Shown piece by piece: positions 3,571 through 45,947 of a stretch of DNA of 64,000 nt. A program made the translations under genes and the position numbers. The DNA comes from a virus (Duplodnaviria > Caudoviricetes), in the IMG/VR virus record IMGVR_UViG_3300037851_000141, positions 256,001-320,000 of that record, one strand, 5' to 3'. Within the stretch, counting starts at the first letter, position 1. Each line of letters starts with the position of its first letter. A model generated the notes under the pieces. That model saw only the letters and a program-made list of their open reading frames with translations, made no database searches and was not told where the DNA came from.

Positions 3571-3855
3571 ATGAATAAAGTCAAAGAAGTATCCGATTTA
3601 TATGGTGTTGTATTTAAGCAGTATTTCTGGACCAATGCTGATGAAGAGAATGAAGCGTTTAGTTATGTTGAAGAATACGTAGAAAGACCAGTTGAAACTC
3701 TTATATATCATTCAGATAGCCCAAACCACGATGCTGTATTTTATGTAATCTCAAATATAATTGAAACTGTTATAGGTAATCCAATTTTCTCAGATAGATA
3801 TAAACACACATATAAAACCAATAAACAACATATCCTAAAGGTCTTACATGATTGA
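3571..3855 (+). CDS. C-terminal-tag family member 1
   Basis: Ends KTNKQHILKVLHD. Confidence 0.75.
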   Translation: MNKVKEVSDLYGVVFKQYFWTNADEENEAFSYVEEYVERPVETLIYHSDSPNHDAVFYVISNIIETVIGNPIFSDRYKHTYKTNKQHILKVLHD

Positions 3856-4510
3856 ATTACATCAAGATTTATTAGAAGAACAAGATAAACCTACATATTA
3901 TCTCGATAAAAAATTAATAAGCGGCCAAACCTATATACAAGATAATGAGAATACTTGTGGATTTTTAGCAATTATTAACGCATTATCATATTTTAATAAA
4001 CCTATTCCCAATATTAAAAAACTAAGAAAATTAGCTAAAAAATATCAATTACAATATGGTTCATCGCCACAGGATATACAAACATTATCACATGAGTTAG
4101 GCATTCATTTATCAAAAATTAAACCCGACAAGAATCAAATAATTAATGCCGTAAATAAAGAATTTCCAGTTTTAATTAGTATGAGATTTAGCTTGAATGC
4201 TCCGCATATTCCAGAACCAAAATATGATACAAAAATAATCAATTTCAATGTAGGCATTAATAACATTATTTCGTTTTTATCTTCAGAACAAAATGAAAAA
4301 TTAAAAGAAAACTGTATTGGCGAATTCCACACAACCTTAATAATCGAATATGATAAAAATATTGATAAATTTTTATGTCTAAATATGTTTCATAATTGTT
4401 GGATGAATTATAATGAGTTTATATTTGATGTTGGACCAAATGGTGAAAAATGGGACACAACGTTTATATGTACAACAACTCCAATAAAAATAACCGGATT
4501 TCCATTATGA
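3848..4510 (+). CDS. Putative C39-like (papain-fold) cysteine peptidase
   Basis: YIQDNENTCGFLAIINALSYF (Q-x5-C-G) and EFHTTLIIEYD (catalytic His strand). Confidence 0.65.
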   Translation: MIELHQDLLEEQDKPTYYLDKKLISGQTYIQDNENTCGFLAIINALSYFNKPIPNIKKLRKLAKKYQLQYGSSPQDIQTLSHELGIHLSKIKPDKNQIINAVNKEFPVLISMRFSLNAPHIPEPKYDTKIINFNVGINNIISFLSSEQNEKLKENCIGEFHTTLIIEYDKNIDKFLCLNMFHNCWMNYNEFIFDVGPNGEKWDTTFICTTTPIKITGFPL

Positions 4511-4755
4511 TTAAAGGATTTGTACCTCGTTATCCATATAAGTGTAATAGGAAGGATGATATTTTTCCTATTATTGACGTTGAACGTGTATTTGGAATGA
4601 TCTTAAAATTTCCAAAATTTAAGAACCCATTATTACATTATCATAGATTTCCAGCATTATATGGGTGCGGATTATTATCATTAGTATGTCAAAAAATAAT
4701 GGAATCTCAAAATACGGTAAATAAGAAACATATTCTAAAGGTGCTACATGATTGA
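4507..4755 (+). CDS. C-terminal-tag family member 2
   Basis: Ends TVNKKHILKVLHD; ATG overlaps the upstream TGA. Confidence 0.75.
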   Translation: MIKGFVPRYPYKCNRKDDIFPIIDVERVFGMILKFPKFKNPLLHYHRFPALYGCGLLSLVCQKIMESQNTVNKKHILKVLHD

Positions 4756-5008
4756 CGGAATCGACGGCCTAAATCATTACCAGAGACTCACTTATAATAA
4801 CACTTTACGTCAATTATGTAATCCTTTAGATGCTATAGGTGGGATAATAGGTTCACCACATGTTTTTATGATGAGTTCAAAAATTATGTATAAATTGTGG
4901 CCAACACTTTTTGTTTATGGAGTATTCGGAACAATATATGTAAACTTGGAAAAATCTCAAAATAAGGTAAATAAGAAACATATTCTAAAGGTATTGAAAA
5001 ATGATTGA
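4748..5008 (+). CDS. C-terminal-tag family member 3
   Basis: Ends KVNKKHILKVLKND. Confidence 0.75.
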   Translation: MIDGIDGLNHYQRLTYNNTLRQLCNPLDAIGGIIGSPHVFMMSSKIMYKLWPTLFVYGVFGTIYVNLEKSQNKVNKKHILKVLKND

Positions 5009-5246
5009 CGGCGTTAGATTTCGTGATCGGACATGGGTTGTTGATGATAGGTTTATTACTCTTCGTGAAGTTGATAATGTAATTGGATGGGTATGTCTGC
5101 CTCCAAAATTTAAGAACCCGCGATTTAACTTTTTCACATTCCCTCTTTTATATGGATACGGAATAACAGCAACGATATATAGCAAAATAATGGGATCTCA
5201 AAATAAGGTAAATAAGAAACATATTCTTGAGGTACTACATGATTAA
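5001..5246 (+). CDS. C-terminal-tag family member 4
   Basis: Ends KVNKKHILEVLHD. Confidence 0.75.
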   Translation: MIDGVRFRDRTWVVDDRFITLREVDNVIGWVCLPPKFKNPRFNFFTFPLLYGYGITATIYSKIMGSQNKVNKKHILEVLHD

Positions 5247-5481
5247 TCAGGCTCGGGAACTTGCGTTGCTTTCATTTGATTCTAAATGTCTTTGTTTATG
5301 TCGTGATTTAGAGCAAGTTAGAAGAATTGTTGGTTTTGTTTCTCCTTATTCAACGGCTATTGTATTTCGGATATTCCCACACTTAAGAGGATTTGGAATA
5401 GTGTTCGAAATATATAAAGTTCTTGAAAAACAACAAAATAAGGTAAATAAGAAATCCGTCCTTGACTCTCTAAAAAACTAA
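5239..5481 (+). CDS. C-terminal-tag family member 5
   Basis: Ends KVNKKSVLDSLKN. Confidence 0.75.
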   Translation: MINQARELALLSFDSKCLCLCRDLEQVRRIVGFVSPYSTAIVFRIFPHLRGFGIVFEIYKVLEKQQNKVNKKSVLDSLKN

Positions 5482-5511
5482 GGTAAAATATCCGTACATA
5501 AAGGAATTCCC

Positions 5512-5979
5512 ATGAAACCATTCAAGACTATCTTATTATCAAAAGAAGATTATAACGATACATTATCACAGAGTATTTACACCTCATATAATCTTATTGG
5601 TGTGATGCTTGAAGAAGATAAAGTCCAAATTGTAAAGAATCGTTTAGGCGAATCCGCAGTTGTTACTTTAGACAGATGGTATGAACTTGTAAAAAATGGC
5701 ACAAAAGAATGGAATCTGCTTCAAAAGGGCATTAAACTTCCAGATGCCGAAGCAATGCTTATTTTCAAGAAAGGTGGTAATGCTGTTATTGTAGCTAATC
5801 AACATGAAAACCCAAACTCAAGCGATCCAACTTTATCAATATTATGCCAAGAGTGCGACTTGTGCCATTGCGAGTGTCATTCTTTATATATTGATCCTTC
5901 TCATGGTGAATATTCTGGATCAACTCTCTGTTTTACTTGCTTAAAAAATATAATAACGTTACATAAGGAAAATGTATGA
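5512..5979 (+). CDS. Hypothetical protein with C-terminal Cys motifs; paralogue of 6231..6626
   Basis: Shares PFKT.LL...LIG...EE.KVQIVK.R...VTLD.WY..VK and CxxC...CxxC with 6231..6626. Confidence 0.7.
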   Translation: MKPFKTILLSKEDYNDTLSQSIYTSYNLIGVMLEEDKVQIVKNRLGESAVVTLDRWYELVKNGTKEWNLLQKGIKLPDAEAMLIFKKGGNAVIVANQHENPNSSDPTLSILCQECDLCHCECHSLYIDPSHGEYSGSTLCFTCLKNIITLHKENV

Positions 5980-6230: not shown

Positions 6231-6626
6231 ATGTCACCATTCAAAACCTTGTTGCTACCAAAAGACTTTGACTTGAAAACTTTAAGGTTTGACCAAAGTA
6301 TAAAGTCTCATCTTATTGGTTTGCTATGTGAAGAAAATAAAGTCCAAATTGTAAAATCTCGTTATAGCAATGCTTACCCATTGGTTACTTTAGATGAATG
6401 GTATAATATTGTAAAAACTGAAACAACATATTGGAATAATGCCCAAAAACGAGAAGATAAAAATATTCAACCAACGTTAACAATACGCGAAGGTCTTATT
6501 TGTGATAATTGTAAAAAACAGTGTAATAATCCTTGTATTGAATTGACTAATAATGACGGTGAAAAAACTACCCACTGTCTCGACTGCTTAACAAATATTC
6601 TCCATGTCTTTAAGAACTACAAATGA
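6231..6626 (+). CDS. Hypothetical protein with C-terminal Zn finger; paralogue of 5512..5979
   Basis: Same motifs; CDNC...CLDC; own promoter near 6180. Confidence 0.7.
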   Translation: MSPFKTLLLPKDFDLKTLRFDQSIKSHLIGLLCEENKVQIVKSRYSNAYPLVTLDEWYNIVKTETTYWNNAQKREDKNIQPTLTIREGLICDNCKKQCNNPCIELTNNDGEKTTHCLDCLTNILHVFKNYK

Positions 6627-9036: not shown

Positions 9037-9082
9037 GCGCTCGTCAAACAAAGGCATACAACCCTCAACAAAGGAGAAACCC

Positions 9083-15898: not shown

Positions 15899-15899
15899 G

Positions 15900-19782: not shown

Positions 19783-20736
19783 ATGCCACAAGATGATAAA
19801 GTTTATAATCAATTAAAAGAAACCTGGAAGAACATTATTCAAGAAATGTTTATCCACGGTGATCCAAATAATAAGAATGTTATAGCGTTTAGAGATAGTA
19901 TTTGGTTATTAGCGAATGATATTCCGGCATCACTTGCCAATGAGATATATAAAAAAGTAGGAATTGATATCAAGTATAATGAAGATGCTGATTTTTTGGA
20001 TTTAGCGAATGAAATAATGAATGAAAAGCCGGATGTACTTACAGGGTCTATTAATGATAAAACCTTATTAGTTTATAGTTCAGGATCGTTTACATTAGAT
20101 CCGAAGTCATCTATTCTTATCAAAAAAGTTGTACAGCATCTCAAACTCAAAAAAGTTGATTATCAGGAAATGGAAGATCAATTTACAGTTCCCAAGAAGA
20201 AAATAACTGGTCAAGTTCCAGACATAGCATATCATGGAACGTCTCTCAATTATCTCGATAGCATTTTGAGACACGGATTAGAACCAAGAGGAAGTCAAAG
20301 CAATTACGAACAACAAGGCATTTACCACGATGATAAGATATTTTTCTCAACTAGATTTGGAGAAGCAAGTCATCACGCAGATCATACAGCAGCATTGAAA
20401 CAATCTAAACCTGTTGTTATTGAGTTTAGAATTCCAGATAAAAATCTTATAACTCCAGATTATGACATTGATATCCAAAGTGGTGAAACGTTGTGGTCAG
20501 ATACAAGAGATAGCAAATCGAAACTTACCAATCCAAAGAGTCAAAGCGCAAGTCAAGAGTTTGGAATATACGGTTATCAAGGAAAAATAATACCCCAACA
20601 TTTTAGATATTTTTACATAAACTTAAGTGGGGATGAATATTCAACGCTTAAAAGCTATAAGAGATTTACATACAAACAATTACAAAAAATTATTAACAGA
20701 TATGGTGACTTAGAATCTTATTTGGATTATTATTGA
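19783..20736 (+). CDS. ADP-ribosyltransferase-like protein with a candidate capsid-targeting N-terminus
   Basis: AYHGTSLNYLDSILRHGLEP, IFFSTRFGEASHHA, VVIEFRIP; N-terminus DDKVYNQLKETWKNIIQE. Confidence 0.6.
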   Translation: MPQDDKVYNQLKETWKNIIQEMFIHGDPNNKNVIAFRDSIWLLANDIPASLANEIYKKVGIDIKYNEDADFLDLANEIMNEKPDVLTGSINDKTLLVYSSGSFTLDPKSSILIKKVVQHLKLKKVDYQEMEDQFTVPKKKITGQVPDIAYHGTSLNYLDSILRHGLEPRGSQSNYEQQGIYHDDKIFFSTRFGEASHHADHTAALKQSKPVVIEFRIPDKNLITPDYDIDIQSGETLWSDTRDSKSKLTNPKSQSASQEFGIYGYQGKIIPQHFRYFYINLSGDEYSTLKSYKRFTYKQLQKIINRYGDLESYLDYY

Positions 20737-22548: not shown

Positions 22549-23607
22549 TTATTCTATCTCTCCACCACCTAAACAAACATCATTAGCCAAGTCATAGAAT
22601 ACCGCATGTTGACCTGGAGCCGCAACTACAGGATCATCAGTTAAGACTTTTACAACAGAATCAGATTTGTATAACTTAGCCTTTGTACAGGTTCCACGAT
22701 AACGAACTTGACAAACGACTTCCATACCATCATAAAAAGGTCCAGGGAACAATTCATTTTTGATAGTAAAGTCATTAGTTGAAATCTTCTCAATAGTATC
22801 AACATATATTACATTATTATTGACATCTACCTTATCAACAAAGAGTGGAATTGGAGTACCGTGTAAGCCGATTCCTTTTCTTTGGCCTTTAGTCTTTCCC
22901 CAAACGCCATTATGTTGCCCAATTACCATATTCTTATATACAATAGGTCCACGCTTTTTCTGTAATCCACCAAAGTCAAATAGGAACTCACTAATATTGC
23001 CACCAGGGACCATACACAGATCGGTAGAGTCGGGTTTAGCGGCAACATGAATCCCGATCTTATTAGCAATCTCCCTAATCTCCATTTTAGTAGAGAATCC
23101 ACCTAAAGGGAAATGAATCTGTGGAATTATATCTTTAGGAATCCGATAGAGGAAGTAAGACTGGTCCTTTTTCAGATCCTTGGCCCTAGTGATAAAGAAC
23201 TGATCATCTATCTCTTTCGTATTAGCATAATGTCCGGTTGCTAAATGAACAGACCTATCACCATTTACAGCTTGGTAGAGGCTATTGATTTTAGTTGTGG
23301 CATTACAGAGGATACAAGGTGATGGAGTTAAGCCATTCTCGTAATCCTTTACCATTGGCTTTACAGTATGGTCCATAAAGGTCTGTTGAGCATCTATGAC
23401 CTTAAATTGGATACCTAAGTCATTGGCAATCTTTGAAGCATCTTGAGTAGCTTTAGCATTACAACAGGATGCCGAATTGATATTTTGATTACAACGCCAA
23501 AGGACAAGATTTACTCCAATGACGTTATATCCATTACTCTTTAGTAGGTGAGCAGATACAGCAGAGTCAACGCCACCAGACAGACCAACAGCCACAGTAA
23601 TAGGCAT
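22549..23607 (-). CDS. mnmA: tRNA 2-thiouridylase
   Basis: GLSGGVDSAV, ATGHYA, KDQSYFL, KPDSTDLC, QVRYR, APGQHAVFY. Confidence 0.95.
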   Translation of the reverse strand: MPITVAVGLSGGVDSAVSAHLLKSNGYNVIGVNLVLWRCNQNINSASCCNAKATQDASKIANDLGIQFKVIDAQQTFMDHTVKPMVKDYENGLTPSPCILCNATTKINSLYQAVNGDRSVHLATGHYANTKEIDDQFFITRAKDLKKDQSYFLYRIPKDIIPQIHFPLGGFSTKMEIREIANKIGIHVAAKPDSTDLCMVPGGNISEFLFDFGGLQKKRGPIVYKNMVIGQHNGVWGKTKGQRKGIGLHGTPIPLFVDKVDVNNNVIYVDTIEKISTNDFTIKNELFPGPFYDGMEVVCQVRYRGTCTKAKLYKSDSVVKVLTDDPVVAAPGQHAVFYDLANDVCLGGGEIE

Positions 23608-29928: not shown

Positions 29929-32085
29929 TTACATCCTGTTAATATAGTTTATGATATGGTTATTATGTTGAGTCTGTTTATCTGATGGGTAAGTAAAGTA
30001 ATCCATATCAGCCTCAAAAATAAAATGATACCTGGATTTCGCACTACTCCAAAGTTTATTAATAGTTTGGAGTTTCTGACTTACACAATTAGCTGGGGGT
30101 TGAATCTTATCTTTAGTGATTAGAGCCGCGATCCTATAGAATTCGTTATAATCAATATGCTTGACATTCGTATTATCACGTAAATCAAGAAGTTCCATAA
30201 GCTTATACATATCGGTATTTTGGTCAATCTTATCTTTACAGTCTTTCCTTGACCAGATATTGTTGCGGAATTCGATTACTGCGGTTTTCCAAGCAATCTG
30301 TTCACTCTTATTTACAAAGTCAGAATCTTCATAGTCAATCTTATACAACTTATCTACTTCTACAGAGAGCCGGTCGATAAAAGCGTCAAGTTTCTCAAAT
30401 GACTTGACTTTATTGAGAAAGCTGGTTGGAACACCGATAAACTTAGGCGTCTTGAATGATGGATTTTGTGATTGAACATGTTTGACCATGTTATATATAT
30501 TTGCCATTTGCTGATCAGAGATATTACGAGCATTCTTTCGGAGCATTTCAACAATTACAACATCTTCTTTATTGAATGTTGAGAAGTCAAAGTTTCCACC
30601 AAGCCAATAGATTCGCATGAATTCATAACCATCGACTTTAGCTTGACGTTCGTATTCTCTCTTTACTTTAGGAACATCAAGTTTACAAAGATCCACAGCA
30701 TCCAAGACAGGCAGCATATCAATTACAGGAGAGTTACATTTTTTCTCAGCGAGTTCCTTAAGTGTATATGACAGGACTTGGATTGAATCAAGGTGCGGAT
30801 TTTGTTGGAGCAGATAGTCAACTTTTCTCTTAGGAATGGAATCGCCGTCAGAGCAATAAGCCAACAACGTCTTTTCATGAACATGTATATCACCGGATCG
30901 CTTATACTTAGAACTATTATATTTAGGATAAACCCGAATAAAATCACCATAATTTGTGTTAATCTCTCGACCATTTACTTGATATGCGGTATTGGTATTT
31001 TTATCAGTCCACACAACATGAGATATAACTTTAGCAAACTCAGTCAGATTACAGACTTTTCGCCAGTGAACATTTGCCTTCCACAGAGATTCACATTCAG
31101 CTACTACATCTGATACGTCCTTTTTTACAATATCACAAATCTCAAACAGCCTATCAAGTATGGCTTTTTGAGTCTTTTCATCATATTGGAGATTTTCACG
31201 ACTAAGAGCAACTGACAACTCACCAATGCCAAACTCCATAATGATATTAGCAGCAAACATATTACGAAGATTGGCTGGGAAGTTATTTAGCGAGTTGAGA
31301 TTCACAATATAAGGAATCTGACCAACAAGAGCCACAACCTTATTTTGGTCATATATTACTGACTTCTTGAGGATTTGCCAATTAGTTCCCTCAAAGATAA
31401 CATCATTTGTGGCATAGTCGATTGCGGAATTCTTGAGGTCAGGTCGAACATTCCAATATTGAGAGACTTCCACAGTATATTGATTGAAGTAATGGATATC
31501 TTCAATTTTAACAGGAACCGTGATAGTTGTGCCAGTTGATTCATTAGCTTCGCAAACCCTACGAGAACCATCAAACTCCATCAACTTATTACGACGATCT
31601 TCACCAATAATAGCAATATAGGTACGTTCAACAATCTCATTACCTTCTTGAGCCTTGGTAATGATGGTAAATGAATCAGTATATGCCCAGGGACTCTTGC
31701 TACCAATTCCAAATCCGCCAATCAGTTGCGAACCATCATCCGTGGCATGTTGACCTACTCCACGCTTAGTTGAAACTCCAAACTGAATAAAAACTTCCTT
31801 CATACGAGTAGGACTAATACCTGGACCATAATCCGTGACAGACCAATTAAGATTGAAGCGAGTAGGAATATTTACAACGATTGGCGTATTCTCTTTGCCA
31901 ACTTCTTTATGAGCATCCTTGGCATTGGACATCAACTCTTGAACCAGTACACGCTTAGGATTGCTATAAACGCTCTTACGCAGATATTCAAGAATGAGTC
32001 GAGGATCACCAATAGTAAACTCGGATTCGGTAAACTGTCCAGATGATTCGAGAACTACACCGTTGGAGTCGAGGCGCATGATCAA
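29929..32085 (-). CDS. rIIA: rIIA-like protein (GHKL/HSP90-like ATPase N-terminus)
   Basis: ELMSNAKDAH, DYGPGIS, STK, GGFGIGSKSPWAYTDSFTI, LSVALSRENL. Confidence 0.88.
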   Translation of the reverse strand: MIMRLDSNGVVLESSGQFTESEFTIGDPRLILEYLRKSVYSNPKRVLVQELMSNAKDAHKEVGKENTPIVVNIPTRFNLNWSVTDYGPGISPTRMKEVFIQFGVSTKRGVGQHATDDGSQLIGGFGIGSKSPWAYTDSFTIITKAQEGNEIVERTYIAIIGEDRRNKLMEFDGSRRVCEANESTGTTITVPVKIEDIHYFNQYTVEVSQYWNVRPDLKNSAIDYATNDVIFEGTNWQILKKSVIYDQNKVVALVGQIPYIVNLNSLNNFPANLRNMFAANIIMEFGIGELSVALSRENLQYDEKTQKAILDRLFEICDIVKKDVSDVVAECESLWKANVHWRKVCNLTEFAKVISHVVWTDKNTNTAYQVNGREINTNYGDFIRVYPKYNSSKYKRSGDIHVHEKTLLAYCSDGDSIPKRKVDYLLQQNPHLDSIQVLSYTLKELAEKKCNSPVIDMLPVLDAVDLCKLDVPKVKREYERQAKVDGYEFMRIYWLGGNFDFSTFNKEDVVIVEMLRKNARNISDQQMANIYNMVKHVQSQNPSFKTPKFIGVPTSFLNKVKSFEKLDAFIDRLSVEVDKLYKIDYEDSDFVNKSEQIAWKTAVIEFRNNIWSRKDCKDKIDQNTDMYKLMELLDLRDNTNVKHIDYNEFYRIAALITKDKIQPPANCVSQKLQTINKLWSSAKSRYHFIFEADMDYFTYPSDKQTQHNNHIINYINRM

Positions 32086-36014: not shown

Positions 36015-36296
36015 TTATTCTTGTAAACTCTTTAATACAGACGGTTTATTTACTGATCGTCTTACTAATATCCAAGATCCGTAATTATTTACTTTAACTG
36101 TATTTCGAGATATCAATTCTTTTATATTGTTTATTGCCGTTAAATGTAAATAATGTAATGTATGCGGTGGTGACGGTTTTAGAAAACTGCGGGAGTCAAT
36201 AAACATATCTTCAGTCACTAAATTTACAAATAATCCTAAGTTATATCTGATGTTTCTATACGTCGTACCCCGTAACTGATTTATAGCAGATAACAT
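36015..36296 (-). CDS. C-terminal-tag family member 6
   Basis: Ends SVNKPSVLKSLQE. Confidence 0.75.
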   Translation of the reverse strand: MLSAINQLRGTTYRNIRYNLGLFVNLVTEDMFIDSRSFLKPSPPHTLHYLHLTAINNIKELISRNTVKVNNYGSWILVRRSVNKPSVLKSLQE

Positions 36297-36508
36297 TATT
36301 TCAATCCTTTTAGCACAGCTTGTTTATTTACATTTTCTATTTTCCAACAAGGACCATTATTGCGGAATAAACCATTAAATGCTCTAATAACTGGAAAACC
36401 ATCATTACCAACCAATGATAAAAAATCAATAATCGGTGAATAAACATATTGAAAATCATGAACCTTAAAATATAATTCCGTTTTTTCATAAAAGTGCTTA
36501 AAACTCAT
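36296..36508 (-). CDS. C-terminal-tag family member 7
   Basis: Ends NVNKQAVLKGLK. Confidence 0.75.
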   Translation of the reverse strand: MSFKHFYEKTELYFKVHDFQYVYSPIIDFLSLVGNDGFPVIRAFNGLFRNNGPCWKIENVNKQAVLKGLK

Positions 36509-36779
36509 TTGATGTTCCTGACAACGAGTTTAATACAGATTTCTTATTTACTAATTGAAATTTGTTAGTTTTATGAAATATTTGTGGTGGTCGTAGTAAA
36601 TTAAATAAAACCTCGTAAACCCGATATAATACTAAAATATGTCCCCTATAAGAATCATTCAACCCAAAACTAACTCTCTCAATACGAATATCACAAAAAA
36701 CACGTAAATCCTGAAAAACTTTAGGAGGTATGTTAATATTTTCAACCACCAATCTTTTAGACTGCTTAATAATTATCAT
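36498..36779 (-). CDS. C-terminal-tag family member 8
   Basis: Ends LVNKKSVLNSLSGTSNEF. Confidence 0.75.
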   Translation of the reverse strand: MIIIKQSKRLVVENINIPPKVFQDLRVFCDIRIERVSFGLNDSYRGHILVLYRVYEVLFNLLRPPQIFHKTNKFQLVNKKSVLNSLSGTSNEF

Positions 36780-37056
36780 CTTGTAATCCTTTTAATACCG
36801 CAACTTTGTTTACTTTACTAATATCTACGCAAATAGATAATTTGGTCAACCTTTCATCTTCAAGAGACATCATTATATTATTTTTTAGTCGAAATATTTC
36901 ATTAATCTCTATATATGGTTCAGTCATATAAGAAAAGAAATAATACATTTTTAGACTTGTATTCGTAGCAGTTAACTTATATAAATCTAATACAGAAAGA
37001 TAATGTAGTCCGATTTGAGCTAACTGATGTTGTGCTTGTTTTGTAAATTTAAGCAT
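36766..37056 (-). CDS. C-terminal-tag family member 9
   Basis: Ends KVNKVAVLKGLQDDNY. Confidence 0.75.
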   Translation of the reverse strand: MLKFTKQAQHQLAQIGLHYLSVLDLYKLTATNTSLKMYYFFSYMTEPYIEINEIFRLKNNIMMSLEDERLTKLSICVDISKVNKVAVLKGLQDDNY

Positions 37057-37321
37057 TCAAAGACCTTATTTTGAGTTCTTTATTCAATTTATCAAGATGA
37101 TCAGCAATTGTTATATAAGCAGTTCCAAGTTCTCTTATATCAACATCAGTCGCATATCCACCATCCAGGTAAACCATATGTTGATTATCCTTTGATGCTG
37201 GAAGATAATCATTAGATAGTCGAAGTTTAGCACCTATAAGATATAATGCTTCATCAATATTCATAGTTTATCCCTTTACATCATCATAATCGAAAAATAC
37301 CTAAAGTCAACTAAATTCTGC

Positions 37322-37531: not shown

Positions 37532-38107
37532 ATGCCTATCTCATCCGTCCTAACCGCCGAACCCGTTGATGTCCTAAAGACTAAACGCAATCTCAATTCT
37601 CTTGAAGTTGAAATTCTTGGAAACCTCTACCTTGGTAATCCACAAAAGCCAAAGAATCGTGAAGGTGATGTTATTGTTGATGGTATGTGTGGCGAATATA
37701 AAAAGGTAGGATTGAATGGTCGAACTCTTGATACCAGCAATACCATCAATCAAGTTCGAGCAATTAAATGTAATTTCTTGGTCATATACAGCACATATCA
37801 TTGGTCATGGTTTGTTGTACCGGCTCACGTAGTTGTTCAGTTGGTAAAGGGTAAGCGCCGAGGTCAACATACCGAAATCCCTTATGAGTGTGCTACTCTT
37901 AGTCTGAAAGACGTTATAGATACGGAAGGTGTTATTGAAGTTGACAATACCGATGCTGAAACCAAACTTCTTCCGGCAGTCCGAGCGGCTATCATCAGTA
38001 GTTCAGTGAAATCAAATAAGAAGTATATCGATTGCATGGAATTTCTATCAAAGAAAATCCAGTCTCTTAAAGAAGACTATGAGTTTATTATAGATAGTAT
38101 TTTGTGA
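37532..38107 (+). CDS. Possible PD-(D/E)xK nuclease (restriction-endonuclease-like)
   Basis: GDVIVDGMCGEYKKV; directly upstream of a DNA methyltransferase. Confidence 0.4.
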   Translation: MPISSVLTAEPVDVLKTKRNLNSLEVEILGNLYLGNPQKPKNREGDVIVDGMCGEYKKVGLNGRTLDTSNTINQVRAIKCNFLVIYSTYHWSWFVVPAHVVVQLVKGKRRGQHTEIPYECATLSLKDVIDTEGVIEVDNTDAETKLLPAVRAAIISSSVKSNKKYIDCMEFLSKKIQSLKEDYEFIIDSIL

Positions 38108-38158
38108 TGGCTTTCTGAAAATACTTTGATATAATATACATATAGATTAGGAGTTTAT

Positions 38159-39295
38159 ATGTATAAAGAAAATATCAAATCAGTAGATAGAAAAAGGAAA
38201 CATGGGGAGGTTTTAACCCCATGTTTCCTCGTTAATGAAATGTTAGATAAAATACCAGAATCAGTTTGGAAAAACCCTAAACTAAAATGGATTGATAATA
38301 GTTGTGGAACAGGAAATTTTCTCATAGAAATAAAAAATCGTTTACTAAAATACCATGCCGAACAACATATATTACAAAACATGATTTATGGTGTTGATAT
38401 TCAAGAAGATAATATAAAAGAGACGAAGCAAAAACTTGGTGATACTAATAACATTGTTTGTTTCAATAGTCTTACATTTGATTATTGGAATAACATGAAA
38501 TTTGATGTTATCGTTGGAAATCCACCATATAACAATGATAAGGGAGATAAAAAAGGAAATACTTGTAATCCACTCTGGAATCTTTTTGTTGAACATGCCA
38601 TAACCAAACTATTAAATGATAACGGTCTTTTGTTGTTTGTTCATCCTCCACTTTGGCGTAAACCCGAACATAAGTTGTGGAAGCTAATGAAAAAATATCA
38701 ACTTCATTTTCTAAAAATTTATAGCACAGAAGAATCATCTAAAATGTTTAATTGTTCAACAAAAGTAGATTATTATCTTTTACAGAAAAAAGACGCTTAT
38801 AAAGACACTATCATTATTGACGAAAAAGGAATTAAATCTAAAATAACTGTACACGATAAACCATTTATACCAAATTTCTATATTGAAGAAGTGTATAATG
38901 TTTTCTCAGGTAAAACTGATGTTATATACGATTGTTCTTATCATCATTATACACAGCAACATGTAAAATCTGAAAAAAATGAAGAATATAATCTACCGTG
39001 TATATATCTTGTAAACAAAAAGGGAATAAAATACTATTACTCAAATAAAAATATAGGACATTTCGGAATCCATAAAGTAATAATACCTATGGGAAGTTAC
39101 ATACCTATTTTAGATGAAACTGGTCAATACGGAATGTGCGAGGTTGCCTTTGCTATTCCTATAAAAGATAAAGAATATGGTGAAAGTCTTATGAAATTCC
39201 TAACATCTGATAATTTTAGAAGAATATTATCTGCCTGTAAATGGAAAACGGTTCAATTAGATTATCGTCTGTTTAAATACTTAAATATACCTTAA
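38159..39295 (+). CDS. N6-adenine DNA methyltransferase (Eco57I/TaqI-like gamma class)
   Basis: GEVLTP, DNSCGTGNFL (motif I), DVIVGNPPY (motif IV). Confidence 0.92.
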   Translation: MYKENIKSVDRKRKHGEVLTPCFLVNEMLDKIPESVWKNPKLKWIDNSCGTGNFLIEIKNRLLKYHAEQHILQNMIYGVDIQEDNIKETKQKLGDTNNIVCFNSLTFDYWNNMKFDVIVGNPPYNNDKGDKKGNTCNPLWNLFVEHAITKLLNDNGLLLFVHPPLWRKPEHKLWKLMKKYQLHFLKIYSTEESSKMFNCSTKVDYYLLQKKDAYKDTIIIDEKGIKSKITVHDKPFIPNFYIEEVYNVFSGKTDVIYDCSYHHYTQQHVKSEKNEEYNLPCIYLVNKKGIKYYYSNKNIGHFGIHKVIIPMGSYIPILDETGQYGMCEVAFAIPIKDKEYGESLMKFLTSDNFRRILSACKWKTVQLDYRLFKYLNIP

Positions 39296-39354
39296 ATATT
39301 TTCTTGACTTCAAACCAATATTCTTTACAATGCTTCCATCTATAGGAGCAATAT

Positions 39355-39759
39355 ATGACTGATCTTCTACCTTGCCCTTTCTGTGGGTCTAAACGTGTTG
39401 AAGTCTTTTACGATTATGTTGAAAATAATGAAATAGGTTGTTTTAATAATAACTGCGAATCTGCTTATGTACTTTGCCGAGAATGTGAGGCTAAAGGGCC
39501 ATTAATCAAAATGTCTAATTCAAACCCACTACATAAACTAAGAATAATTGAAGCGTGGAATAACCGAAATAAACCTAAACCCAAATCCGAACCTGTATTA
39601 GATAAAAATGGTAAAATAGAAAACTTTATCATGTCATCCGGTGGCAAACCCTTCCGTTGCTCTTGTGGTTGTAATGTCTTCCATAAACCAGATAATAAAA
39701 ACTTAACCTTATATGAATGTAATTCCTGCCATACTGAATATATAGGCGAACCAGAATGA
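39355..39759 (+). CDS. Lar-like (restriction alleviation) zinc-binding protein with an extra zinc ribbon
   Basis: LLPCPFCG...VLCRECEA...AWNNR; CSCG...CNSC. Confidence 0.6.
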   Translation: MTDLLPCPFCGSKRVEVFYDYVENNEIGCFNNNCESAYVLCRECEAKGPLIKMSNSNPLHKLRIIEAWNNRNKPKPKSEPVLDKNGKIENFIMSSGGKPFRCSCGCNVFHKPDNKNLTLYECNSCHTEYIGEPE

Positions 39760-39984
39760 ATCCAAATATAATCCTACTAAATATCTCTGACGTTGATAAA
39801 CCTAAAGATGGCGTATTCATGATACACATTGATCATTGGTGGATTGTAAAAGATAATCAAATCATGTTATATAGAGACTACGCACCACAATGTAATACTA
39901 ATAAAGAAATCGCAACCAAAATTCGTGATAAGATATATCCAGATTGCGAAGTACGACAATTACCTGTTATCTACTTGGAATACC

Positions 39985-40230
39985 GTGATTAACAAAAAAT
40001 TCTCAGATGAAATCATTAACGTAAAACGCCGTATTGTTAATAAAATGACTGTAGATGTACTTCAATGCGTCAGTACTAATGTAGCTCTATCAACCAGAAT
40101 ACATCATGTAAAAGCAACTGTTAAGGATTCATTTGGTTTTTACGATTTTTATGGAATTCGTACACCAGTGTATGATTACAAAAAAATCTCTAAAGTTAAT
40201 AAACAATCTGTACTAAAGAGTCTAAAATGA
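39985..40230 (+). CDS. C-terminal-tag family member 10
   Basis: Ends KVNKQSVLKSLK; GTG start overlapping the upstream gene end is assumed. Confidence 0.7.
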   Translation: MINKKFSDEIINVKRRIVNKMTVDVLQCVSTNVALSTRIHHVKATVKDSFGFYDFYGIRTPVYDYKKISKVNKQSVLKSLK

Positions 40231-40490
40231 TCAACTCTATATTCTCTGACGACATTGTTCATATATCAAATCAAGCAAGAGAAAATGTCCTAAGTAAAAT
40301 GAAGTTGGATGTATTTCATTATTTCAGTACTGACTTGTCTCTAATGACCAAAATCAATTTTATCAAATATACTATATCGGATTATTTGGGATTTTATGAG
40401 TTTTATACCGGAAGAATAAATGATGATATTTACAACAAATTCTCCAAAATAGATAAACAATCGGTACTAAAGAGCCTAAAACATGAATAG
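40227..40490 (+). CDS. C-terminal-tag family member 11
   Basis: Ends KIDKQSVLKSLKHE. Confidence 0.75.
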   Translation: MINSIFSDDIVHISNQARENVLSKMKLDVFHYFSTDLSLMTKINFIKYTISDYLGFYEFYTGRINDDIYNKFSKIDKQSVLKSLKHE

Positions 40491-40680
40491 CTTAAAAGAA
40501 AATGTTTCAAAATCTGTCAGTGAATCGATTAGTGACTCTGTTAGAAACCACGTTTGGTCCTATATTTATTTTCCCGTTAGGTATTCTGTCATAATCCGAA
40601 TTTCGTACGGTATTGATGATTATGTTGAATTACAATATTCTAAAGTAAATAAAGCCTCTGTTCTAAAGAGCCTTAAATGA
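40483..40680 (+). CDS. C-terminal-tag family member 12 (SVxx periodic N-terminus)
   Basis: Ends KVNKASVLKSLK. Confidence 0.75.
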   Translation: MNSLKENVSKSVSESISDSVRNHVWSYIYFPVRYSVIIRISYGIDDYVELQYSKVNKASVLKSLK

Positions 40681-40892
40681 AATTGAAATCCTTGAAAGAT
40701 CCATTAAAGAACTCTGTTAAGCACTCTATTGAGAAATCTGTTAGCCACTATGTTAGGTCTACTATTTGGACCGTTATTTATTTCTCTGTTATGTATTCTG
40801 GTATAGATCATGCTTGGCTATTTGTTTGTAACTCTGTTAAATCTCAAAAACATAAAGTAAACAAATCCTCTGTTCTAAAGAGCCTTAAATGA
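40677..40892 (+). CDS. C-terminal-tag family member 13 (SVxx periodic)
   Basis: Ends KVNKSSVLKSLK. Confidence 0.75.
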   Translation: MKLKSLKDPLKNSVKHSIEKSVSHYVRSTIWTVIYFSVMYSGIDHAWLFVCNSVKSQKHKVNKSSVLKSLK

Positions 40893-41149
40893 GATCCAAA
40901 ACCTATCATTGGCCGTCCAGAAGAAGACATTGGCGCATCATACACATATATAAACCTCTAAAATCAAAAGCATTCCATATAATCAAAAATAAAATTTGGG
41001 TTTACGGCCCCTATACCCAAGCTAAACATAATATCAAACCAAAGGTAGAATCACACCTTATACGTATGAACAGAACAATCAGAACATGTATATATCAATT
41101 CCGAAAACAAGTTAATAAATCGATAGTTCTAAAAGGTCTACAAGAATGA
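40889..41149 (+). CDS. C-terminal-tag family member 14
   Basis: Ends QVNKSIVLKGLQE. Confidence 0.75.
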   Translation: MRSKTYHWPSRRRHWRIIHIYKPLKSKAFHIIKNKIWVYGPYTQAKHNIKPKVESHLIRMNRTIRTCIYQFRKQVNKSIVLKGLQE

Positions 41150-41349
41150 AGTTAAAAATAAGAGAACACGTAAAAGAAAAAATCAGCACCATAACTGACT
41201 TGTATATCGATAACTCTCTACGCTATGTTGTGGTTGATAATGTCTGCTCTAATATATATTTTTATTGGGATAATTATGGGTTCTTACTTAAATATATTAA
41301 TATGACATCCATAAATAAATCAGCAGTTCTAAAAGGTCTACAAGAATGA
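41146..41349 (+). CDS. C-terminal-tag family member 15
   Basis: Ends SINKSAVLKGLQE. Confidence 0.75.
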   Translation: MKLKIREHVKEKISTITDLYIDNSLRYVVVDNVCSNIYFYWDNYGFLLKYINMTSINKSAVLKGLQE

Positions 41350-41591
41350 ATATAATGCCAACACACCTTTTAGATGATTTTGTTGATGTTGATATTAGAT
41401 TTATCATATTTACAGAGATATATACTAAAGTCAGAAATAATATAACTCATAGGATAAAATCAAGAATCGATGGTGAAATGTATACAATCACAGTATTCAT
41501 ACAAACTGAAACTGTTGAAGCATTATCAGGAAGACTTCATCACAACCTCAAACTAAACAAATCTTCCATTTTAGCGAGTTTACAAAAATGA
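41346..41591 (+). CDS. C-terminal-tag family member 16
   Basis: Ends KLNKSSILASLQK. Confidence 0.75.
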   Translation: MNIMPTHLLDDFVDVDIRFIIFTEIYTKVRNNITHRIKSRIDGEMYTITVFIQTETVEALSGRLHHNLKLNKSSILASLQK

Positions 41592-41866
41592 ACTTTGATC
41601 TTAAAATAGACCGTAAAATCATTTTCTTCGGTATAAAACATAAACTTAATCCTCTTGAAACTTACTATAGAACTTTATTTGATACTAAAATACAAGATAA
41701 CTACCAAGACATCGCAATAGATATAATAAACAACTTGACTGAAGAAATCCAAATCCAAACCACCAGACGTAGATTCATGTCTCACGGATTTATCCAAGAG
41801 TGTTGCCAAGAAAACCAAAATAAAGTCAATAAACAATCTGTACTAAGAAGCCTAAAACATGAATAA
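41588..41866 (+). CDS. C-terminal-tag family member 17
   Basis: Ends KVNKQSVLRSLKHE. Confidence 0.75.
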   Translation: MNFDLKIDRKIIFFGIKHKLNPLETYYRTLFDTKIQDNYQDIAIDIINNLTEEIQIQTTRRRFMSHGFIQECCQENQNKVNKQSVLRSLKHE

Positions 41867-42074
41867 CCTAAAATCAAATACGGCAAAATCTGTTAGTGAA
41901 AACGTTAGAAAATCTATTAGTGACTCAATTTATGACAATGTTAAAAAATTTATCTATATTCCAGTATATTACTCTACGCCATTCACTATATTTTACCATA
42001 ATAAAAAATCTATTAATTACAATATAAACAAACTCAATAAATCATCTGTCTTAAGAAGCCTTCAATCCATTTAA
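41859..42074 (+). CDS. C-terminal-tag family member 18 (SVxx periodic)
   Basis: Ends KLNKSSVLRSLQSI. Confidence 0.75.
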   Translation: MNNLKSNTAKSVSENVRKSISDSIYDNVKKFIYIPVYYSTPFTIFYHNKKSINYNINKLNKSSVLRSLQSI

Positions 42075-42329
42075 TACATCTGCCGTTACTTTATCACGTA
42101 TCTTATAAAATTCTAAATAAAGATTCATAGAATAGTTCATCTCAAATCTTATTGCTTCTCTTAACATAAACTCTTTCTTATCAATTACCTTAAAATAATA
42201 ATCATTTACTTCTTTACAAATACATTTTCTTACATTATCCTTAACCTTATTTCTTACAATCATAGCAACATCACTATGATTGAACCCCTGTATAATATCC
42301 TCAGCAGACCAACGATCAACTAAAGGCAT
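42051..42329 (-). CDS. C-terminal-tag family member 19 (degenerate tag)
   Basis: Ends KVTADVLNGLKAS. Confidence 0.55.
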   Translation of the reverse strand: MPLVDRWSAEDIIQGFNHSDVAMIVRNKVKDNVRKCICKEVNDYYFKVIDKKEFMLREAIRFEMNYSMNLYLEFYKIRDKVTADVLNGLKAS

Positions 42330-43167: not shown

Positions 43168-43170
43168 TAT

Positions 43171-43362
43171 TCATCCTCTTAATCCCCTTAATACCGCATC
43201 CTTGTTCACTTCCTTAATCTTATTCGGACCTTCTAATATATAACTCATAATAGGATCACGATATGCCTTTAGACACATATCTACATCAACAATATCTAAA
43301 AAAGAATCATATACCCTAATACACATATCCTTAAAATATAACCTCTTACTCATAATCACCAT
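43171..43362 (-). CDS. C-terminal-tag family member 21
   Basis: Ends EVNKDAVLRGLRG. Confidence 0.7.
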   Translation of the reverse strand: MVIMSKRLYFKDMCIRVYDSFLDIVDVDMCLKAYRDPIMSYILEGPNKIKEVNKDAVLRGLRG

Positions 43363-43488
43363 CTTATCATCTACTTCATTTATGTCAAGATCCTTTATCC
43401 ACTTAAAAACTTCATCCTACACCGTTTACCTTATATTTTCTGAATGGCTTATACTACTTACCCTAAATACCTTAAATAAAAATATCCA

Positions 43489-43603
43489 CTTGAAACTACT
43501 TGAAACTAATCAAAACCTCGTCAAAAATAAAAAAACCTACTTGAAACTAATCAAAAATAAATCTCTTATATTAAAACTAATCAAAACCTCGTCAAAAATA
43601 AAA
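43489..43603. repeat. A/C-rich direct repeats left of the skew switch
   Basis: AAACTAATCAAAACCTCGTCAAAAATAAAA at 43503 and 43574; CTTGAAACTA three times (43489, 43499, 43540). Confidence 0.8.
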
Positions 43604-43649
43604 ACCTATATAAAAAATAGGGTGTATCTTAGTCGCAGTTCGAACACAC

Positions 43650-43738
43650 GGCCGGAATTTTCATTTTCCCCAGGAATTTAACCAAGTCAAGCAATTTTTA
43701 CAATTTTGGCCCGGTTTTTTAGTTTTCCCAGGAATTTA
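43650..43738. repeat. 31-bp imperfect direct repeat at the skew switch
   Basis: GGCCGGAATTTTCATTTTCCCCAGGAATTTA (43650) and GGCCCGGTTTTTTAGTTTTCCCAGGAATTTA (43708). Confidence 0.8.
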
Positions 43739-43839
43739 GTTATTTTTTATTCAATTGCTCAAAAAATAATCAAAAAAGAAAATATTTGACTTTTTTAAGA
43801 AGGATTTATAATGAGGATAGAGAAAAGAGAGTAGATAAG

Positions 43840-44025
43840 ATGATTAAGGAAATGAATAACCTTAAGATCAAAGCTAGCGTTTATATTAGTGTCTTGAATA
43901 GTGTTGGATATAGTGTCAGGAATAGTGTTGGATATAGTGTCAGGAATAGTGTTGGATATAGTGTCAGGAATAAACAGTATAAAGTTAACAAGGGTGCTGT
44001 ATTGAGGGGGTTGAGGGATGAGTGA
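43840..44025 (+). CDS. C-terminal-tag family member 22, with a tandem repeat
   Basis: (SVRNSVGY)-type repeats; ends KVNKGAVLRGLRDE. Confidence 0.7.
   Translation: MIKEMNNLKIKASVYISVLNSVGYSVRNSVGYSVRNSVGYSVRNKQYKVNKGAVLRGLRDE
43897..43968 (+). repeat. 24-bp tandem repeat, three copies
   Basis: AATAGTGTTGGATATAGTGTCAGG, exact x3, in frame. Confidence 0.95.
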
Positions 44026-44269
44026 ATATGTTTATTGGTCTAATTTGATGAATGCCTGGAACGATGTTAAGAAATTTATTAGGGAATCTGTTAAGAAATC
44101 TGTTATATACTCTGTTAAGAAATCTATTGATGTATATATTATGGAAGCTGTTGATGTGAAGGTTTGTTGGCCTGTTGATGGATCTGAAATTAAAGTTATT
44201 AGGGAATCTATTAAGGAGAGATATAAGGAAGTTAACAAAAAGAGTGTAATAGCGAGTTTAAGAGATTGA
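44018..44269 (+). CDS. C-terminal-tag family member 23 (SVxx periodic)
   Basis: Ends EVNKKSVIASLRD. Confidence 0.72.
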   Translation: MSEYVYWSNLMNAWNDVKKFIRESVKKSVIYSVKKSIDVYIMEAVDVKVCWPVDGSEIKVIRESIKERYKEVNKKSVIASLRD

Positions 44270-44340
44270 GTTGTTTGTAGGGTAATTGGGTTAAAAAATT
44301 GAGTATAAAAAATTAGCGAGTTGGATTAGCGAGTTGTGTT

Positions 44341-44646
44341 TTATGATTTTAGTGAGTTTAGGATAGATTTATGATTTAAGTATTTAAGGTTATAGGATTG
44401 ATGTAGGGAGGTTTGTGTATTAGATATATAGGTTGATTGGATTAAAGATTCGCCGTCAGTATCATATATCAAAAACTCTAATTTTACATAATAGTTGTTT
44501 TTAGTATTTAGGTGTTTAAAAGATTCGTAAGATATGAGGGTAAAGCCTATTTGATTGAAGAAATCTACAAGAGTTATTTCTGGTGGTTTATACATGGTTG
44601 ATTTAAGGTTATTTGGGTATATGAATAGAGGATTTGGTTTATTCAT
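44341..44646 (-). CDS. C-terminal-tag family member 24
   Basis: Ends YLNHKSILNSLKS. Confidence 0.65.
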   Translation of the reverse strand: MNKPNPLFIYPNNLKSTMYKPPEITLVDFFNQIGFTLISYESFKHLNTKNNYYVKLEFLIYDTDGESLIQSTYISNTQTSLHQSYNLKYLNHKSILNSLKS

Positions 44647-44871
44647 AGTAGTTATAGTTTTTTATATTGGTAGGGGGTTTGTGGGGAAAAGTATTTGACA
44701 TTTAGATTTTTTATATAGTTGAGGGTGGATTTGTGGTCTATTATGAAAAGGGTGGGAGTCAATTGAAAAGATTTAGATTCCTTATTACCTACTATGAAAA
44801 GGGTTGTTGTCAAGGGGTAAAATCTTTAGAATGTGAGGGTTTAATATTAGGATAATGATTTGGTATAGGTT

Positions 44872-45108
44872 TTATGGAATATTTGTTGTAGTTGAAGAAA
44901 AAGAGGATAGGATGGATTGTTTATTTATTTTGATTAATTTTTTGTATGCGATATTTTGGATTATATTAAATAGAGTTGTATTATGATCGTCGGCAAGGGT
45001 GGCGTTTGAGAATAGGAATAAATTAAAATGTGGTATTTGGTTTATGAGGTTGAAGTAATTTTTTCTTAAGTTGTATCCTAATAATGGGTTATGATGGAAG
45101 TTATTCAT
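44872..45108 (-). CDS. C-terminal-tag family member 25
   Basis: Ends KINKQSILSSFSSTTTNIP. Confidence 0.65.
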   Translation of the reverse strand: MNNFHHNPLLGYNLRKNYFNLINQIPHFNLFLFSNATLADDHNTTLFNIIQNIAYKKLIKINKQSILSSFSSTTTNIP

Positions 45109-45314
45109 TTGAGACTCTTTAGGACAGATTGTTTATTTAGTTTATAGAAGCATGGGTATTGATTAAGGTGGTCAAAATTATCAATAACGGCAACAATAGC
45201 AAACCAAATGAAGTTTATACATGGTGCTGCTGATCTATCAATACGTTGAATAGCACCAGATTTTTCAGCAGAGTACCTAACAGAACCCTTAATATTTGTT
45301 TTTAAGTTATTCAT
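45105..45314 (-). CDS. C-terminal-tag family member 26
   Basis: Ends KLNKQSVLKSLK. Confidence 0.72.
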   Translation of the reverse strand: MNNLKTNIKGSVRYSAEKSGAIQRIDRSAAPCINFIWFAIVAVIDNFDHLNQYPCFYKLNKQSVLKSLK

Positions 45315-45659
45315 AGGAAGAAGTTATCATTATCATTTGCTTGGTCTGGAGCATCGTCAATGTTATAGTTATTTCCTTCTTCTGTATTTGATGGACCTAT
45401 TTGAGTGACGTTGAAACCTTGGTCTTTGAGCCAATTAGTGAAATTAGTTGGATCTACGTGACCAGTTGAATCTGTATTTAGTTCTAAGTCTTTTTGTTTT
45501 AGGGATTTAGGTACGAGTGATTCATTAATAGAACCATCGTCATTGAAGGGGTTGACCCAGGTTTCGTTATTCATGGTGTCTATTGTACCTTATATTTTGG
45601 GGGAGTCAAGAGACAAAATGTGATATAGGATAGGGTGAAAGGTAGGGGTTTAGGGTATT

Positions 45660-45947
45660 TTAGTGGACAGATTGTGATATTTGTAAGCTTTTTAGTACAG
45701 CTTGTTTATTTATTTTATGTTGTTTAATATTTTCCATAAAAGGTGATATAAAGAATAATTTGGATTCTAAACATAGTGTATCTAACTTATGAGAAAGGTT
45801 ATACTCTACAAACAAATATAAACTATCTAATAATTCATATCGTTCTAATCTAATGTAAGTATTTGGAATATTGAAACAATTTAAGATTCTATATTGAAAG
45901 GACTTATAGATTTGTTTTGGTATATACAATCTAATCCTTCCAGTCAA
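45660..45947 (-). CDS. C-terminal-tag family member 27
   Basis: Ends KINKQAVLKSLQISQSVH. Confidence 0.72.
   Translation of the reverse strand: MTGRIRLYIPKQIYKSFQYRILNCFNIPNTYIRLERYELLDSLYLFVEYNLSHKLDTLCLESKLFFISPFMENIKQHKINKQAVLKSLQISQSVH

Follow-up and report, generated by a model that had tools for sequence, protein, structure and literature searches.

Short C-terminal peptides shared by different phage proteins and read by a single partner are known from the clamp-binding tails of T4 gp43, gp55 and gp33 and from the acidic tails of T7 gp2.5 and gp4. At the DNA level, short repeats flank small non-essential early ORFans in the promoter early stem-loop (PeSL) cassettes of the hyperplastic regions of T4-type phages (Arbiol et al. 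2010, PMC2839356; Comeau et al. 2014, PMC4122927), and these repeats mark sites of gene insertion, deletion and replacement between related phages (PMC2839356, PMC4122927). Here we analyse a stretch of 64,000 nucleotides (nt), hereafter the window, which covers positions 256001-320000 of a 331,849-bp IMG/VR virus record (IMGVR_UViG_3300037851_000141; completeness estimate 92 %), and in which many small open reading frames (ORFs) end in one common peptide tag, i.e. [VIL]-N-K-x-[SAH]-[VI]-L-x-[SGV]-L plus 1-8 residues. Tag positions are numbered V-1, N0, K1, free position 2, Ser3, V4, L5, K6, Ser7 and L8. A family-B DNA polymerase, an RNA ligase of the T4 Rnl1 type and frequent TATAAATA outside the genome arm that bears the tagged genes are consistent with the label of a T4-like jumbo phage. 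A freshwater metagenome run contains 99 % of the window and is its probable source, and a relative is present in a groundwater run.

By a regular-expression search in all six frames of the window, 22 ORF ends matched the tag strictly and 27 under relaxed matching. Together with a hidden Markov model (HMM) of the tail, this search recovered exactly the set claimed in an earlier note on this DNA, i.e. five ORFs at 3.6-5.5 kb, four at 36.0-37.1 kb and 18 at 39.9-45.9 kb (clusters 1, 2 and 3), on both strands. The genome-wide scan with a tail HMM proposed there, run with filters off against 2018 genome ORFs of at least 35 amino acids (aa), returned the 27 window ORFs and two new members upstream of the window, at genome positions 246625-246834 (+) and 252240-252476 (-), 9.2 and 3.5 kb away. 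The total is 29 tagged ORFs, all inside 246-302 kb of the genome; no further ORF in the 331,849-bp genome scored better than E ~1, and the tag model matched nowhere inside longer proteins among the 2018 ORFs. Members, named here by window position (Table 1), are 63-101 aa long with body charges from -7 to +18, and the motif ends 1-9 residues before the stop in all of them. The earlier count of a single degenerate member fits 42051-42329, which is strongly degenerate with V-T for N-K; three further members are mildly degenerate, i.e. 40227 with D for N, 44341 with H for K and 44872 with F for the last L.

The family proved private to this lineage, one groundwater relative included. Pfam and PHROG scans of 18 window members and of two tagged proteins from a groundwater relative gave nothing significant, megablast of cluster 3 against GenBank phages gave no match, and a search of IMG/VR for related loci via the neighbouring RNA ligase found no relative. 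Degenerate patterns of the tag DNA yielded 11 single matches in IMG/VR, mostly Phe-containing, and 120 in metagenome contigs, one alone at an ORF end, both attributable to chance only. The statement that no description of the family was known agrees with our searches of curated families, databases and the literature reached on shared C-terminal motifs of phage early proteins, none of which gave one.

The tag is maintained by purifying selection on its amino acids. In Nei-Gojobori counts over all 406 tail pairs, the proportions of synonymous (pS) and non-synonymous (pN) differences in the six core codons are 0.75 and 0.14, respectively (pN/pS 0.19), compared with 0.69 and 0.63 (ratio 0.91) in the three codons just upstream of the tag and with a pN/pS of 0.97 at free position 2. 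Therefore, the core is held by amino-acid selection, in DNA that has diverged for long enough to saturate its synonymous sites, and this dN/dS-type check bears out the earlier claim of selection on the peptide rather than the DNA. In the codon-wise tail alignment, V4, L5 and L8 are invariant at their second codon positions, with third-position entropies of 1.4-1.7 bits, and synonymous codon choice at V-1, N0, K1 and V4 is, by entropy, as varied as genome-wide codon usage. The wide codon variation described earlier is thus found at free third positions, over second positions that are fixed at V4, L5 and L8.

Codons 5-7 carry an additional signal, since they read YTA-AAG-AGY or YTA-AAA-GGN and form the Shine-Dalgarno (SD) site of the next, overlapping gene. 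The genome SD consensus is AAAGGA, with its peak at -12 to -7 (214 long ORFs). For L5, 25 of 28 members use CTA or TTA, where 44 % would be expected (p = 9e-7), AAG is preferred at K6, and AGY codons are used for Ser7 in 12 of 16 members and for Ser3 in one of 15 (p = 2e-4). A-AAG-AGY, A-AAA-GGN or AGG-GGN sits 10-14 nt 5' of the next gene's ATG in 17 members, and this ATG mostly overlaps the stop (AAATGA, GAATGA, CATGA). Lys or Arg occupies position 6 in 15 of the 17 members with a next ATG 10-14 nt on, versus four of the 12 others (p = 0.005). Non-SD codons at positions 6-7 are found where a longer extension supplies the SD site (36498) or where a downstream gene is absent (5227, 44341, 44872). 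Given this dual coding, translational coupling partly accounts for Lys or Arg at position 6 and for the location of the tag at the extreme end. Within the arrays, genes overlap by 4-8 nt and leave no intergenic space. Equivalent overlaps with the downstream gene are found for the untagged Lar-like, 78-aa, 71-aa, 87-aa, C39-like and RNA ligase genes, and the tag is therefore unnecessary for coupling; five of nine operon-terminal members have a perfect core. Conservation at the DNA level, by a ribosome-binding site (RBS) or a stop-start overlap, had been named in the earlier note as the scenario that would overturn its reading: it applies to positions 5-7, which are dual-coded with the next gene's SD site, and fails for the core, where synonymous sites are saturated.

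Regarding structure, an AlphaFold2 (AF2) model from a six-sequence alignment of one subfamily (subfamily C, see below) shows four helices, with a mean predicted local distance difference test (pLDDT) of 72, and its last helix, 57-64, begins immediately after V55-N56. This model, the one that proved usable, supports the proposed Asn-capped helix; the AF2 prediction for subfamily A (pLDDT 48) was unusable. On this model, the Asn would act as N-cap, V at N' and V/I at N4 would form a hydrophobic staple, and positions 3 and 7 would make up a small-x-x-x-small face. That the helix is amphipathic, as had also been suggested, receives little support from the hydrophobic moment of the tails (mean 0.44 versus 0.36 +/- 0.17 for the bodies of the same proteins). 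Tails have a mean net charge of +1.8 and no aromatic residues. Degrons of the ssrA/MuA type and PDZ ligands are recognised by a free C-terminus at a fixed distance; the 1-8 variable residues after the motif argue against such carboxylate-anchored reading, whereas a degron read as an internal helix is possible. A complex prediction of 40483 with 5001, i.e. for tag-tag pairing, scored 0.00 and counts neither way.

After removal of the tails, the bodies were compared by BLAST and iterated HMM searches. The earlier description of mostly dissimilar N-termini holds for about 12 members, which are linked to no other, and has to be qualified by three detectable subfamilies, i.e. A (4450, 4748, 5001 and 5227), B (39925 and 40227) and C (40483, 40677, 41859, 44018 and 45105), the last with a fringe of 43786, an upstream member and 42934. 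In a search of the 2018 genome ORFs with the subfamily C profile, the top eight places were all taken by family members. In subfamily C the bodies are short stretches of an x-x-S-V repeat, matching SVxxSV proteins with E down to 1e-18 among 1.84 billion representatives, and within the family this repeat was found in subfamily C alone (40483, 40677, 41859, 44018, 45105 and 43786). Elsewhere, it forms long arrays in DUF6745 proteins and also occurs in other small phage proteins. None of the SVxxSV proteins inspected elsewhere carries V-N-K-x-S-V-L-x-S-L, the untagged small examples ending differently, and outside this genome tagged matches to the subfamily C profile came from the groundwater relative only. 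Judging from its four-residue period, the tag (S-V-L-x-S-L) may have arisen from a repeat of the SVxxSV type. In the ESM Atlas, 40483 resembles viral small-protein clusters (0.91), and a look-up of 5001 gave nothing usable.

A perfect SVGYSVRN repeat, present three times inside 43786-44025 (+), shows an SVxx repeat expanding in situ, and the 22 codons upstream of 43786 may be a remnant of a lost neighbour gene. Positions 40453-40524 and 41829-41900 are duplicates with 83 % DNA identity, the unit being the tail of one gene plus the start of the next (MN[SN]LK...). Duplications are thus offset from the gene borders and take the upstream tail with them as ribosome-binding region.

A profile of all members, searched against 5.8 billion proteins, found this genome, a near-identical 33.9-kb contig and contigs of one groundwater run only. 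The flanking DNA of this groundwater relative is 85-95 % identical and the arrays differ. Its contig L016 lacks the C39-like peptidase gene of cluster 1 and the bodies of 4748 and 5227; the third L016 gene fuses the 5001 body with the 5227 tail, and the overlaps between alignment blocks, 59 and 32 nt long, fall in tail DNA. In contig L017, an insertion of 591 nt with a reverse-oriented tagged gene of 155 aa separates the 41346 ortholog from that of 41588; this contig also has two additional new tagged ORFs. In L019 an extra tagged body precedes the ortholog of 43786, with a 42-nt tail 97.6 % identical to that of 43786 and a body that is unmatched there. The contig joints 39990/40233, 40682/40858 and 44017/44230 likewise place breakpoints in tag DNA, and about 6 kb of the relative's contigs hold 12 tagged ORFs. 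Since the breakpoints of the L016, L017 and L019 indels and these joints fall inside tag DNA, the alignments show it behaving as an in-frame recombination linker, at which bodies are inserted, lost or replaced.

The promoter context is that of early genes. The sequence TTGAC[AT]-N16-TAnnAT has 47 copies in the genome, 31 of them inside the last 92 kb, whereas shuffled sequences contain five. One copy stands directly 5' of the first gene in five tagged operons (3537+, 37283-, 39304+, 43361- and 45582-), and a sixth (47166-) precedes the ligase gene coupled to 45660; the 43786/44018 pair and 42051 gave no match of this kind. Within the tagged clusters the T4 late motif TATAAATA does not occur, and it is sparse in the surrounding arm and frequent elsewhere in the genome. 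By these motifs, the tagged clusters would be early, sigma-70-type transcription units, and late virion-directed expression is unlikely. Capsid packaging, one of the roles suggested earlier, is made unlikely by the early promoters and the absence of TATAAATA from the clusters. Terminator-like hairpins number two in 12.5 kb, below the shuffled level, and no RNA sequencing run was listed as containing the stretch.

Of the readings considered, a docking tag for a diversifying effector library, as first put forward in the earlier note, is probably the best. More precisely, we propose a lineage-private family of about 29 early accessory proteins whose Asn-capped terminal helix is a common interaction handle, a proposal for and against which we see equal weight. 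The invariant polar N and K and the small-residue face, on otherwise unlike bodies, point to one binding surface. The proteins are encoded in tightly coupled operons, in a plastic genome arm beside anti-restriction genes, and their heterogeneous bodies turn over fast. Their C-terminal module would consist of a hydrophobic residue, the Asn N-cap, an invariant Lys and a two-turn helix with V/I-L...L on one face, and would most likely bring many different bodies to one phage or host partner. Codons 5-7, doubling as the SD site of the next cistron, fix the tag 1-3 residues before the stop, and the roughly 30-40 nt of tag DNA provide in-frame homology for duplicating, deleting and swapping bodies between related phages. 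The Lar-like and methyltransferase neighbours suggest a host-takeover or anti-defence arm. It is tempting to speculate further that the tag is a true address label, by which one phage or host machine (e.g. a protease, a chaperone or a polymerase hub) grips the approximately 29 early proteins as a shuffling library of adaptors or effectors, with the tag DNA serving as RBS and recombination linker; we consider this possible at a tentative level. If true, this array would be one case of a general and undescribed organising principle of the early gene arrays of large phages.

Several observations weigh against a common handle. The tag is confined to small proteins of one genome arm and occurs on no larger enzyme of this phage; an address label free to move between proteins would perhaps have spread further. 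Weak N-terminal similarity joins at least 12 of the 29 bodies, so that the pattern is partly ordinary paralogy, and the single usable structure model has a low predicted TM-score (pTM 0.33). Deviations in the core affect four of nine uncoupled members versus one of 20 coupled ones (p = 0.02, post hoc), which docking alone does not predict.

Plain paralogy is the main rival: one small ancestor, perhaps an SVxxSV-repeat protein, would have multiplied by tandem duplication, with the helix merely its slowest-evolving part and no common partner. The tandem arrays, the subfamilies visible without tails, the eight family members heading the subfamily C search and the unequal crossing-over at tails between relatives all fit this account, as would the match of the tag to the S-V-x-x period of the subfamily C body. 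Nevertheless, about 12 bodies resemble no other, charges span -7 to +18, lengths reach 155 aa in the relative, and SVxxSV proteins elsewhere lack the tag; moreover, invariant polar N and K are hard to attribute to packing, and a conserved helix still needs a function. We rate paralogy without a partner as unlikely, if still worth serious attention, and as a process it is compatible with a shared function. A DNA or RNA element with an incidental peptide (RBS, stop-start overlap or recombination site) would explain why codons 5-7 fit the genome SD at the correct distance to the next ATG with strong codon bias, and why the indel breakpoints of the relatives lie within tag DNA. Saturated synonymous sites at V-1, N0, K1, V4 and L8 over unchanged second positions, the perfect core of five of nine operon-terminal members and the equally tight coupling of untagged genes make it the least credible account of all; as a pure DNA element it is refuted for the first seven codons and holds for positions 5-7 only. 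Marginally less improbable is a cis-acting nascent peptide that slows termination from within the exit tunnel and aids re-initiation on the next cistron, a role for which we know of no precedent. The tag lies at most nine residues from the stop, 20 of 29 members are coupled and the core deviations are enriched in uncoupled members, but anywhere from 1 to 8 residues separate tag and stop, coupling is just as good in untagged genes, and the tag persists in terminal genes.

Two further functions were considered, both of them very improbable. The peptidase gene of cluster 1 (Peptidase_C39_2, E 1.3e-5) is translationally coupled between two tagged genes, and C39 domains bind helical leader peptides; the tag could accordingly be a recognition helix, i.e. 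a C-terminal 'follower', in a processing system like those of ribosomally synthesized and post-translationally modified peptides (RiPPs). However, this gene is missing at that position in the syntenic L016, where tagged genes are retained, most tagged genes lie 30-40 kb off, and a double-glycine leader is N-terminal, ends in Gly-Gly (or Gly-Ala/Ser) and has a C39 peptidase as obligate neighbour, whereas the tag is C-terminal and contains no Gly-Gly. A shared terminal motif on small, often basic proteins with positively charged tails also recalls capsid-packaging or virion-targeting signals, as in the T4 internal proteins, or membrane helices of the MinD and FtsA type, which combine a high hydrophobic moment with bulky hydrophobic and basic faces. 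Here, the promoters are early with no late ones, and in T4 the signal lies at the N-terminus and is cleaved off; the tag's hydrophobic moment stays at background, aromatics are missing, and a strict N-K is atypical of membrane helices.

What this analysis adds is a quantitative split between peptide selection and the SD overlap, an early-promoter context, an SVxxSV origin for one subfamily, and tag-internal breakpoints in a comparison of two natural relatives. Small early ORFans with no known function make up most of the genes of large phages, and a handle on 29 of them would give one experimental entry point. It would show how phages keep new genes expressed (built-in RBS), in frame (coding linker) and connected (common partner). 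One 30-nt stretch acting as peptide motif, SD site and recombination junction is a case of overlapping constraints, and a caution that C-terminal conservation is not purely a protein signal.

Table 1. Tagged ORFs and early-type promoters in window coordinates.
Feature	Position	Strand	Evidence
Promoter TTGACT-N16-TAAGAT, early type, head of cluster 1	3537..3564	+	consensus match
Tagged ORF, 94 aa, acidic body, tail TNKQHILKVL+2; ortholog in L016	3571..3855	+	
Tagged ORF, subfamily A, 82 aa from ATG 4507; longest frame from 4450	4507..4755	+	
Tagged ORF, subfamily A; no match in relative contig L016	4748..5008	+	
Tagged ORF, subfamily A	5001..5246	+	
Tagged ORF, subfamily A, likely start ATG 5239; operon-last; non-SD codons at positions 6-7	5227..5481	+	
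Tagged ORF, 93 aa, last in cluster 2 operon	36015..36296	-	
Tagged ORF, 70 aa	36296..36508	-	
Tagged ORF, 93 aa; SD of next gene (AGGAA) within 7-residue extension	36498..36779	-	
Tagged ORF, 96 aa	36766..37056	-	
Early-type promoter, head of cluster 2, ahead of untagged 71-aa gene 37049-37264	37283..37310	-	
Early-type promoter of long + operon: Lar-like gene, 78-aa gene, then 9 tagged genes	39304..39331	+	
Tagged ORF, subfamily B, 81 aa from ATG 39985	39925..40230	+	
Tagged ORF, subfamily B, D replacing N	40227..40490	+	
Tagged ORF, subfamily C (SVxxSV body), 65 aa; AF2 model, tag helix 57-64	40483..40680	+	
Tagged ORF, subfamily C	40677..40892	+	
Tagged ORF, body very basic (+18)	40889..41149	+	
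Tagged ORF, 67 aa	41146..41349	+	
Tagged ORF, 81 aa; L017 ortholog differs in C-terminal half	41346..41591	+	
Tagged ORF, 92 aa; ortholog in L017	41588..41866	+	
Tagged ORF, subfamily C, operon-last	41859..42074	+	
Degenerate member, DKVTADVLNGL	42051..42329	-	
Tagged ORF, 77 aa	42934..43167	-	
Tagged ORF, 63 aa, downstream of promoter 43361-43388 (-)	43171..43362	-	
Tagged ORF, fringe of subfamily C, internal SVGYSVRN x3	43786..44025	+	
Tagged ORF, subfamily C, I replacing L5	44018..44269	+	
Mildly degenerate member, LNHKSILNSL	44341..44646	-	
Mildly degenerate member, INKQSILSSF + 8 residues	44872..45108	-	
Tagged ORF, subfamily C; operon headed by promoter 45582-45609 (-) and untagged acidic 87-aa gene	45105..45314	-	
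Tagged ORF, 95 aa, translationally coupled to upstream T4 Rnl1-type RNA ligase gene 45931-47142 (promoter 47166-47193)	45660..45947	-	

Among the neighbouring genes, 3848-4510 (+) encodes the stand-alone C39-like cysteine peptidase, with a TCG motif around the putative catalytic Cys and ATGA overlaps with the tagged genes on either side. At the head of cluster 3, 37532-39992 is a possible anti-restriction block, i.e. a 191-aa gene, a DNA methyltransferase gene of the Eco57I/N6_Mtase type (N6-adenine; 38159-39295), a gene for a Lar-like restriction-alleviation protein (39355-39759) and a gene for a conserved 78-aa phage protein (phrog_13902); one relative contig skips 37387-39296 and is without the 191-aa gene and the methyltransferase. 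Downstream of cluster 1, 5512-5979 and 6231-6626 (+) encode paralogs of 155 and 131 aa, with an N-terminus M-x-P-F-K-T-(I/L)-L-L and a Cys-rich, zinc-finger-like C-terminal end. Each has its own TTGACT-N16 promoter, neither matches a family, and 5512-5979 is 95 % conserved in the relative, exceeding the tagged genes.

The untagged 87-aa protein that heads a tagged operon (45311-45574, -) is strongly acidic, rich in D, E and N, and ends in DNDNFFL. A role as DNA mimic or decoy is possible, and the aromatic, acidic end of this protein is closer to tails of the clamp or single-stranded DNA-binding protein type than the family tag is. The family-B DNA polymerase (genome 126444-129611, outside the window) ends in ...LPSFTTEDITEFFS (...DITEFFS), a T4-like tail of the clamp-binding type that is unlike the tag; no clamp gene matched the gp45 C-domain (PF09116) in the whole record. 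Auxiliary genes of this genome arm encode a nicotinate phosphoribosyltransferase (NAPRTase; 1693-2877, -), a weakly PARP/Tpt1-like protein (19783-20736, +), an MnmA-type tRNA 2-thiouridylase (22549-23607, -) and a protein of 718 aa that weakly matches GHKL ATPases (29929-32085, -). In L016 a MazG/cytidylyltransferase-domain (CTP_transf_like) gene stands beside the ortholog of a 194-aa gene, in place of the NAPRTase gene.

Compared with the described systems, the tag resembles the clamp-binding and T7 tails as one short C-terminal peptide on several different proteins. Those tails are aromatic or acidic and belong to a few large replication or transcription proteins, whereas the present tag, carried by 29 small proteins, is basic and aliphatic; it also lacks the aromatic end of a T4-type sliding-clamp-binding tail (L-x-x-L/M-F), and the phage polymerase has no match to the tag HMM. 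The T4 internal proteins (IPI-III, Alt) are likewise a hypervariable set of small proteins with one common short terminal peptide. Their signal is N-terminal, encoded by late genes and cleaved by the prohead protease (at L/I-x-E in the capsid-targeting sequence), in contrast to a C-terminal tag on genes with early promoters and no TATAAATA. The SVxxSV/DUF6745 proteins (PF20530) share the body of subfamily C (five to six members) and the four-residue S-V/L period of the tag, but are mostly 250-500 aa long, with tens of repeats and a DUF6745 domain, and the other 20-odd tagged proteins are without the repeat. A PeSL regulatory cassette does not describe the locus, where promoters stand at operon heads only, intergenic space is absent and hairpins are fewer than in shuffles. 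Regardless, as in the PeSL cassettes, the repeats are the indel breakpoints between close relatives; while PeSLs are intergenic units of a sigma-70-like early promoter and a stem-loop terminator between shuffled ORFs, the tag repeat is coding, is kept at the amino-acid level and carries the SD site of the next gene.

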